IMG/VR virus record: IMGVR_UViG_2565956610_000009
Span: 1-29,055 of that record
Strand: one strand, 5' to 3'
Length of the DNA: 29,055 bases
DNA from: a virus
Taxonomy: Duplodnaviria > Heunggongvirae > Uroviricota > Caudoviricetes
This document shows positions 15,789-16,712 of the stretch, piece after piece; the first letter of the stretch is position 1; each line of letters begins with the position of its first letter. Below the pieces are notes generated by a model. The model searched no databases. It was not told the DNA's origin and was given only the letters and a program-made list of their open reading frames with translations. The translations under genes were made by a program, and so were the position numbers.

Positions 15789-16712
15789 ATGAGATTAAAA
15801 TACTCAGTACTCTTACTCGCCATTGCCCTTACAGGCTGTGATAACAAAAAAGATGAGATCGGTTGTTCTTCGGAAATAACCCAGTCAGCTCTCATGGATT
15901 TATTAAAAAAATCTGCTTATGAAGGACTCTCTGAACAGGTCGATAAATACCCTGATGTCACTAATCAGACCAAACGAAGCACACTGGACAAGATCAAACT
16001 AGCCATCTCTGAGATCTCCACAACATCAAGTGACACGGGCAGCACAATGAAAACTTGTGAAGGGACCGTGACGATGACTCTATCTGCGAACGAGTACGTC
16101 CAGCTTTCAGATGCTTACAGAAAGAATTTTAATCGTAATCTCGATAAGCAAATGGAAAGCCTGTTTTTGGAGAACAACGCAAACGCCTTTTCAAAACGTA
16201 TCACCTACACCGTGCAGGCGACCGACGATCAGAAAAACGTTTTTGTAAAAACCTCTACTGATAATCCGATATCAGTGGGCGCCGCTTTACTGACATCGCT
16301 TTCCATTATCACCCCGATCGTTGAGCAGCAGAAAATCCAGCAGGCTAAGGATGCCCAACAGAGTCAAATTGAAGCGGAACAACAGGTGCAACTCAGGGCG
16401 CAAGAACAGGCTAAGTATGAGGCGGAGAAGCAAATAGAGAGACAGGCACAACTTCAGCCGCAAAAAGCTGACAACCTTGATCAGTCCCGAATGGCATTTG
16501 CGAATGCCGACTCTGATTTGAGTACCGTCTGGAGCAAGTTAACCCCGGCGAAGAAAAAAGATTTGCTGCCTTCTCAGCGTCAGTGGATCAAAACTAAGGA
16601 TGCTATGTGCGGTAAAGTTTCAATGCAGGGAACAGATGCTGAAGTCAAGAAAATGGTCGACTGCCAGACGCAAATGACCCTTTCAAGAATCGCTTTCCTC
16701 AGAAACCAATAA
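15789..16712 (+). CDS. Lipoprotein with Gln-rich coiled-coil region and C-terminal DUF1311/LprI-like two-Cys motif
   Basis: Signal peptide with lipobox LTGC; central QQKIQQAKDAQQSQIEAEQQVQLRAQEQAKYEAEKQ repeat region; C-terminal QRQWIKTKDAMC...VDCQ resembles the DUF1311 pattern. Confidence 0.75.
   Translation: MRLKYSVLLLAIALTGCDNKKDEIGCSSEITQSALMDLLKKSAYEGLSEQVDKYPDVTNQTKRSTLDKIKLAISEISTTSSDTGSTMKTCEGTVTMTLSANEYVQLSDAYRKNFNRNLDKQMESLFLENNANAFSKRITYTVQATDDQKNVFVKTSTDNPISVGAALLTSLSIITPIVEQQKIQQAKDAQQSQIEAEQQVQLRAQEQAKYEAEKQIERQAQLQPQKADNLDQSRMAFANADSDLSTVWSKLTPAKKKDLLPSQRQWIKTKDAMCGKVSMQGTDAEVKKMVDCQTQMTLSRIAFLRNQ

Follow-up and report, generated by a model that had tools for sequence, protein, structure and literature searches.

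ScwA (SL1344_0490) of Salmonella Typhimurium is a periplasmic protein with a C-terminal LprI domain and four conserved cysteines, C30, C100, C237 and C259 (PMC7933661). It has no effect on lysozyme sensitivity and is a positive regulator of the amount of MltD, a lytic transglycosylase; its cysteines are required for stability and function, and its overproduction leads to lysis (PMC7933661). The family name used by PGAP originates from LprI (Rv1541c) of Mycobacterium tuberculosis, a lipoprotein reported to inhibit lysozyme (Sethi et al. 2016, cited in PMC7933661). LprI has an extra MliC domain, which the ScwA authors hold responsible for the inhibition of lysozyme, and according to them inhibition by the LprI domain itself has no experimental support (PMC7933661). 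The label 'lysozyme inhibitor' is unproven for the LprI domain (DUF1311) itself. Here we describe a gene on a 29,055-nucleotide stretch of viral DNA (IMG/VR record IMGVR_UViG_2565956610_000009, positions 1 to 29,055; in the following, the window). It is genuine, forms a self-contained piece of cargo in an E. coli prophage and encodes a membrane-anchored periplasmic lipoprotein of the annotated LprI/DUF1311 family, with the RefSeq/PGAP product name 'lysozyme inhibitor LprI family protein' (WP_001237642.1) already in place. The gene is ordinary in kind, i.e., its domain, its annotation and its closest functional analogues are known, and it is the lipidated, stalked, two-domain architecture of its product that is uncharacterized.

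DUF1311 helical bundles are also found in periplasmic proteins with a demonstrated or predicted role in immunity to cell-wall effectors of type VI secretion systems (T6SS), i.e., in Etsi4 of enterohemorrhagic E. coli (EHEC), in SED_RS06230 of S. Dublin, in orphan immunities of Pantoea and, structurally, in TsiV3 (4nsr). Etsi4 rescues the toxicity of Etse4 (PMC12981562). In Pantoea and S. Dublin, LprI-domain genes come after lysozyme-like or transglycosylase effectors, and a survey of WHIX effectors also records LprI-domain genes after such cell-wall effectors. In P. aeruginosa, insertions in the DUF1311 gene PA3021 were depleted under one of two β-lactams tested, and the gene was listed alongside peptidoglycan-metabolism genes. 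The thread common to these DUF1311 proteins is interaction with enzymes that cut peptidoglycan glycan strands. From the analogy with the T6SS immunity proteins and with ScwA, we consider it most likely, with a probability of about 40%, that the prophage protein would be tethered to the membrane, bind or inhibit muramidase-type peptidoglycan hydrolases in the periplasm and so give the lysogen envelope protection. The mode proposed for both the prophage protein and the immunity proteins is peptidoglycan glycosidase binding. In contrast to the immunity proteins, which are single-domain proteins of about 100–150 residues with Sec signal peptides and are encoded beside or arrayed with effectors, the prophage protein has 307 residues, a lipidation site and two domains joined by a stalk, and its gene has no T6SS neighbor in 12 contexts.

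The gene, its flanking signals and the parts of its product lie in the window as follows.
15560..15788, plus strand: conserved 5′ region, presumed promoter and 5′ untranslated region.
15789..16712, plus strand: open reading frame (ORF) for the 307-residue LprI/DUF1311-family lipoprotein WP_001237642.1, stop codon included.
15789..15839, plus strand: lipoprotein signal peptide, residues 1–17, with the lipobox L-T-G-C17 followed by Asp18-Asn19 (PS51257).
15864..16262, plus strand: N-terminal α+β domain, NTF2/cystatin-like, residues 26–158, with invariant C26, C90 and D146.
16266..16475, plus strand: long polar Gln/Glu/Ala/Lys-rich helix and linker, residues 160–229, a variable-length spacer (AlphaFold2 helix 160–221; 33% Gln).
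16476..16703, plus strand: C-terminal DUF1311/LprI three-helix bundle, residues 230–305, with invariant W248, C274, C292 and R300.
16728..16759, no strand assigned: 14-bp G+C-rich hairpin found by RNA folding, presumed bidirectional terminator between the convergent LprI-family and ORF6N genes.

The ORF has the coordinates of the initial annotation and starts with ATG; a Shine-Dalgarno-like AAGGG (15779–15783) lies five bases 5′ of this start codon. The formal lipobox rule, PROSITE PS51257, reads {DERK}(6)-[LIVMFWSTAG](2)-LIVMFYSTAGCQ-[AGS]-C, with the cysteine at position 15–35 and a lysine or arginine within the first seven residues. The N-terminus MRLKYSVLLLAIALTGC follows this rule (V-L-L-L-A-I / A-L / T / G / C17, with a hydrophobic core and the basic residues R2 and K4). 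So did 37 out of 37 family members, which range from 100% to about 20% identity and in which the lipobox cysteine column is invariant. In E. coli, Asp at position +2 after the lipid-bearing cysteine leads to retention in the inner membrane. With the sequence C17-D18-N19 the protein is predicted to avoid Lol transport and to stay in this membrane. Asp occupies position +2 in 18 of the 26 close enterobacterial homologues, and across the wider family this residue is Gly in 13, Asp in 12 and another amino acid in 12 members.

The lipoprotein that had been read from the sequence alone was thus confirmed, and so was its DUF1311-like C-terminus. Pfam PF07007 (LprI/DUF1311) matched residues 225–304 with 30.8 bits (gathering score 22, E=4.1e-7), covering profile positions 10–106 of 106. 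The full-length AlphaFold2 model (mean pLDDT 83.9) consists of a disordered signal and tether (1–28), an N-domain (29–155) in the order helix, two long strands, two helices and three strands, a single unbroken helix of 62 residues (160–221), a short low-confidence hinge and a three-helix bundle (230–305). In this model the C-terminal domain has the predicted helical-bundle fold of DUF1311. The initial annotation was right in describing a prophage lipoprotein with a DUF1311/LprI C-terminus, but it overlooked the whole N-domain (26–158), which carries the motifs S-x-D-x-x-S-x-x-K-x-C90 and Y-T-V-Q-(P/A)-T-D-D. It had also described a Gln-rich coiled coil. The stretch is Gln-rich and helical, with 17 Gln among the 51 residues 178–228 (33%) and 74% Gln, Glu, Ala, Lys and Arg, but a coiled coil was rejected, because no heptad register was enriched; the best one placed strong hydrophobic residues at 6 of 19 a/d positions against about 4.6 expected. 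This helix and linker segment is the sole indel-rich part of the protein and varies between 48 and 82 residues among homologues.

The canonical DUF1311 domain of about 100 residues has four cysteines, two of them in its N-terminal helix. The prophage protein differs from this layout and from the YecT-type single-domain DUF1311 proteins, among them PP0307 (PDB 3gi7), in that its Pfam match begins only at profile position 10 and contains two cysteines, C274 and C292. Besides the lipid-bearing cysteine, the protein has four invariant cysteines, and the other two, C26 and C90, lie in the N-domain. Conserved cysteines are given as a feature of the DUF1311 family by Pfam, as cited in PMC7933661. The link to 3gi7 came only from a fold search; when the PDB was searched by sequence, neither the full protein nor a C-domain profile gave a meaningful match. 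As a lipoprotein with a DUF1311 domain the protein resembles M. tuberculosis LprI. However, it has a partner domain different from that of LprI and lacks an MliC, PliC, Ivy or PliG domain, and the known lysozyme inhibitor families MliC/PliC, Ivy and PliG gave no Pfam match even at E up to 10. Among PHROGs, the only strong match was PHROG 5094 ('unknown function', E=4e-188), which begins at Met36. The prophage gene calls behind PHROG 5094 therefore seem to be truncated, i.e., they would lack the signal peptide and lipobox (residues 1–35, 15789–15893), and the lipoprotein nature of the family is hence hidden in phage annotation.

A word-indexed homologue search returned only close homologues with 43–100% identity from Escherichia, Citrobacter, Enterobacter, Yersinia, Pantoea, Erwinia and Morganella. 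An exhaustive profile search at the 50% cluster level found 519 representatives with E <= 1e-3, 226 of them with E <= 1e-10. Most have 290–330 residues and match over both domains. The family reaches into Betaproteobacteria (Polaromonas, Paraburkholderia, Zoogloea), and the names of its members stop at 'LprI family' or 'YecT (DUF1311 family)'. Across 37 members C17, C26, C90, D146, W248, C274, C292 and R300 are invariant, T78, S85, Q143-P-T145 and Q263 are nearly so, and the number of cysteines after the lipid-bearing one is exactly four in every member. The cysteine gaps in the prophage protein are 64 (C26–C90) and 18 (C274–C292), within family ranges of 60–70 and 17–29. We refer to this architecture as Family A. 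A second one, Family B, has about 275–300 residues, an ordinary signal peptide and a Cys-rich N-domain unrelated to that of Family A. In their C-domain, Family B proteins have 49% identity to the prophage protein, compared with 27% for a distant Family A member. The Family A N-domain was also found fused to other C-terminal modules (P0238, P0221, P0152), i.e., to a type II pseudopilin-like tail in P0238 and to another domain in P0221. As the C-domain is common to both families and the N-domain occurs on other tails, both parts have been shuffled as modules, and the Family A N-domain is an independent module.

ScwA resembles the prophage protein in its C-terminal Pfam LprI domain and in being horizontally acquired, monocistronic and periplasmic. 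Its cysteine gaps of 70 and 22 fit Family A and not the Cys-rich Family B. The ScwA mutagenesis primers (PMC7933661 supplement) translate to STPELK-C30-GNDNAV and NANLRT-C100-SATVAM, and these peptides match the motifs around the first two cysteines of Family A, e.g., SEVNCGDEVA in P0129, NSTLRTCSATVSL in P0115 and GSTMKTCEGTVTM in the prophage protein. ScwA was returned neither by the word search with the family profile, which was saturated by close homologues, nor by a search seeded with P0115, and scans of genome contigs with exact and codon-degenerate ScwA primers gave no match. In contrast to the prophage protein, ScwA is soluble, has 275 residues and an ordinary signal peptide, and lacks a lipobox and the polar helix of about 60 residues. 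Its gene is chromosomal, between ybaP and copA, and not phage-borne. We conclude that ScwA is probably related to the prophage protein as a whole, as a soluble form with a short linker, the N-domains being compared over two peptides of 13 residues. As published ScwA orthologues have 275–278 residues, the prophage protein with its 307 residues, lipobox and 62-residue helix is not an orthologue.

The gene is carried by 439 of 5426 complete E. coli genomes (about 8%), including the sequence type 131 (ST131) reference strain EC958. 429 of the matches are at least 99% identical, the same flanks were present in 437 genomes, and the ORF is intact in all full-length E. coli copies listed. In E. coli NZ_CM190133.1 an IS1 transposase is annotated inside the matched region around the gene. 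We examined the following 12 kinds of locus for gene context.
E. coli: lambdoid prophage.
Enterobacter cloacae complex: lambdoid prophages with the gene in the same slot, O/P to DinI-DUF1367-RusA-Q, again on the opposite strand.
Klebsiella aerogenes: a different prophage, in which the LprI-family gene adjoins the terminase.
Klebsiella: IncFIB plasmids of about 110 kb typed 'non-mobilizable' (NZ_AP024574.1), with an 85.6%-identical copy.
Paraburkholderia: a site flanked by IS/Tn5.
Chromosomal sites: Citrobacter (more than 1000 collection blocks listed), Pantoea, Morganella, Yersinia, Proteus, Kluyvera and a group with 44% identity.

The Klebsiella IncFIB plasmids encode dnaE, primase, a DnaB-like helicase, PhoH, AbiH, a tail fiber and a 12-kb tail protein, and from this phage-type gene content we conclude that they are SSU5-like phage-plasmids. 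In total, at least four different temperate elements from four genera acquired the gene in independent events. In all 12 contexts it is solitary and apparently monocistronic with no recurrent partner, and no VgrG, Hcp, PAAR, Rhs or effector domains were found within the 6–10 kb searched around it. This argues that the gene acts alone and is mainly a host envelope gene that temperate elements have captured repeatedly. Distant copies with less than 60% identity are located on Sphingobium, Novosphingobium and Polaromonas plasmids. An Enterobacter prophage with the LprI-family gene also has an Ivy gene (PF08816, inhibitor of vertebrate lysozyme) near its Q/terminase region as a second lysozyme-related cargo. 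The Morganella orthologue is located 300 bp downstream of an operon for an α2-macroglobulin (YfhM-like) and PBP1C. This linkage was found only in Morganella and not in Proteus, Kluyvera, Klebsiella or Paraburkholderia, and we did not use it as evidence.

Similarity to the Citrobacter chromosomal orthologue begins abruptly about 230 bp 5′ of the ATG (at about 15560) and ends just beyond the hairpin (at about 16760). The unit of transfer is therefore a stand-alone cassette of about 1.2 kb with the classic anatomy of a moron. The 5′ block of about 230 nucleotides was also kept in the Enterobacter prophage and Yersinia chromosomal copies. The hairpin has a folding energy of −32.8 kcal/mol (z = −6.45) and shows compensating changes in Citrobacter; as it has no T-run, it was not listed by a simple terminator scan. 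The conserved 5′ block presumably contains the promoter of the cassette. A σ70 scan gave no convincing site in this block or near the gene, and footprinting across seven loci yielded a conserved TTGA(A/C)T with no credible −10 element. A σE-like GGGACTG..TCTTA in the 5′ region was rejected due to its spacing and its lack of conservation in Pantoea. The region between 14602 and 15560 is AT-rich (about 1 kb, 32–35% GC), with no annotated gene and no counterpart at the Citrobacter locus, and Rfam gave no match in the 1.2-kb gap upstream of the gene.

The window is a lambdoid prophage inserted by the leuZ-cysT-glyW tRNA cluster, near pgsA-uvrC. Its replication, nin/Q, lysis and head genes are all on the minus strand, and the LprI-family gene is on the plus strand, where it converges on an ORF6N antirepressor-like gene. 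It is part of a mosaic island of low GC that separates the replication module from the Q module. Directly 5′ of the ORF6N-domain ORF (16887–17723, minus strand), Rfam matched 17727–17924 on the minus strand as a P1/P7-type C4 antisense RNA (75 bits) and as isrK (80 bits), with c4 a1/b1 target sites. By sequence, the C4 RNA and the ORF6N gene look like an immunity module of the c4-ant type within the lambdoid prophage. Further cargo is located between 12337 and 14601. The plus strand encodes an ImmA/IrrE M78 peptidase, which PADLOC matches strongly to capP (E=2e-25), and after it an ORF of 201 residues that belongs to no family; the minus strand encodes a 232-residue protein with an N-terminal transmembrane (TM) segment (32% GC) that weakly matches a DRT-associated TM protein (E=1.7e-5). 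By these matches, the cargo may be defense-related. The endolysin gene of the prophage (7607–8086, minus strand), downstream of two holin genes, encodes a CHAP-domain enzyme (Pfam 26.2 bits, cut-off 26; PGAP TIGR02594) and not a lysozyme or transglycosylase. A muramidase inhibitor therefore need not disturb the phage's own lysis.

Spacers of clustered regularly interspaced short palindromic repeats (CRISPR) arrays are directed against the gene. About 137 of the 5426 E. coli genomes do not carry the gene and have only a short match to it, which is such a spacer. Two protospacers in the gene have a canonical ATG protospacer-adjacent motif (PAM) on the minus strand.
15789..15820, minus strand: protospacer with ATG PAM, 32/32 match to a spacer in E. 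coli type I-E CRISPR-1 (iap-cas2e) arrays.
16262..16293, minus strand: protospacer with ATG PAM, 32/32 match to a spacer in an E. coli CRISPR-2 (ygcE-queE) array.
The aligned Citrobacter allele has one mismatch and no PAM at the first protospacer, so that the spacer fits an origin from the allele of the E. coli prophage and not from that chromosomal one. The CRISPR-1 array also carries a spacer with three mismatches and an ATG PAM against the prophage portal gene (2663–2694, minus strand).

We propose that the cassette, which has a 5′ region, ORF and hairpin of its own, would be transcribed apart from the lytic program of the phage and hence be expressed in the lysogen. Its product would be exported, lipidated at Cys17 and, given the Asp at +2, kept in the E. 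coli inner membrane. Outward from this anchor would follow the compact NTF2/cystatin-like domain, the polar helix and the DUF1311 three-helix bundle. With a length of about 9 nm (62 residues at 1.5 Å each), the helix would be a variable-length spacer that places the bundle near the sacculus. There, the bundle would bind and neutralize, or sequester, muramidase-type glycosidases entering the periplasm. Candidate targets are the lysozyme-like effectors that competitors deliver through a T6SS, lysozymes of incoming or neighboring phages, and host lysozyme. The envelope protection gained by the lysogen would represent a lysogenic conversion. Inter-domain pairing of C26 and C90 with C274 and C292, analogous to that proposed for ScwA, would staple the N- and C-domains together and force the helix to loop out, which bears on the idea of the helix as a ruler. 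It is a more speculative and rather unlikely extension that the protein stands for a widespread class of stalked lipoproteins, with the helix as ruler and DUF1311 at the peptidoglycan neutralizing foreign muramidases, which temperate phages and phage-plasmids captured against lysozyme-like T6SS effectors or against the lysozymes that rival phages use in their tails or for lysis. By analogy, such a class would correspond to T4 Spackle or to an orphan T6SS immunity, but in the form of horizontally mobile lipoproteins. The prophage protein itself may be an orphan T6SS immunity.

The main rival explanation assigns the protein a housekeeping role like that of ScwA, i.e., it would modulate how stable or abundant endogenous lytic transglycosylases such as MltD are and so tune peptidoglycan remodeling, and the prophage copy would merely alter host envelope physiology. 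ScwA is the only experimentally studied protein of the same layout, with a C-terminal LprI domain and four cysteines in matching spacing; its primer-derived peptides match the N-domain motifs, and orthologues are stable chromosomal genes in many genera. However, the N-domain homology rests on those two short peptides, ScwA is a smaller soluble protein with neither lipobox nor long helix, and the PBP1C linkage of Morganella is absent from every other genus examined. Moreover, repeated capture by temperate elements suits a transferable protective trait better than a regulator of one host's enzymes, and we regard such a role as somewhat unlikely. It is also conceivable, but to us slightly less credible still, that the N-domain carries the function, for example by binding a ligand or an envelope protein, with the helix and DUF1311 as spacer or scaffold. 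This would agree with the location of the strongest conservation outside the cysteines (T78, S85, Q143-P-T-D146), with the occurrence of this domain together with the unrelated C-terminal modules of P0238 and P0221, and with the presence of enzyme inhibitors, i.e., cystatins, latexin and IseA, among NTF2/cystatin-like folds.

Superinfection exclusion, either by blocking of receptor or DNA entry as for Cor, Llp or SieA, or by inhibition of an incoming tail lysozyme as for T4 Spackle, would agree with a prophage-borne gene in its own cassette, with a membrane-anchored periplasmic product, with the several temperate elements that carry the gene and with adjoining cargo that has weak defense-related matches (the capP-like peptidase and the DRT-associated TM protein). 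The initial annotation had likewise compared the protein with the prophage lipoproteins Cor, Llp and Bor, but this analogy found no support in sequence, profile, fold or PADLOC models. As a prophage-encoded lipoprotein presumably expressed from the lysogen the protein resembles them. They are, however, shorter than about 100 residues and phage-restricted, and the family described here is mainly chromosomal. None of the three families was matched in Pfam (E up to 10) or PHROGs, and PADLOC defense models did not match the protein. Megablast and tblastn against the 50,697 sequenced phage records of INPHARED gave no nucleotide or protein relative, so that its known copies come from prophages and chromosomes and not from sequenced phages; Foldseek against the viral structure library BFVD gave no significant structural relative. 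Orthologues with 41–88% identity are widespread as solitary chromosomal genes outside any phage context (Citrobacter, Pantoea, Morganella, Yersinia, Proteus, Kluyvera), which points to a general cell-envelope function taken up by phages rather than to a phage-specific exclusion device. We hence consider superinfection exclusion improbable, and for receptor or entry blocking of the Cor/Llp type, for which there was no positive evidence, the chance is equally small. A superinfection role in which the lysozyme of an incoming phage is inhibited, as by T4 Spackle, is conceivable. Just as improbable is a neutral hitchhiker, picked up by illegitimate recombination and persisting without benefit in a clonally expanded ST131-type prophage. 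The near-identity of the E. coli copies and their shared flanks are compatible with clonal spread of one prophage, but the ORF has stayed intact, the family-wide invariant residues indicate purifying selection, and the gene was captured independently several times.

Besides E. coli, the family gene rides on Enterobacter prophages and Klebsiella phage-plasmids, and the clinical importance of these Enterobacterales makes it of moderate practical interest. If the protein acts as a regulator like ScwA, the interest would be more specialist. If, as we propose, it protects the cell wall from lysozyme-like enzymes, it would count among lysogenic-conversion factors, with relevance for gut competition and phage therapy, and possibly for innate-immune or β-lactam tolerance in major clinical lineages. 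It would also provide the first function for a lipoprotein family of 500 clusters that is now named only by a domain with an unproven 'lysozyme inhibitor' label.
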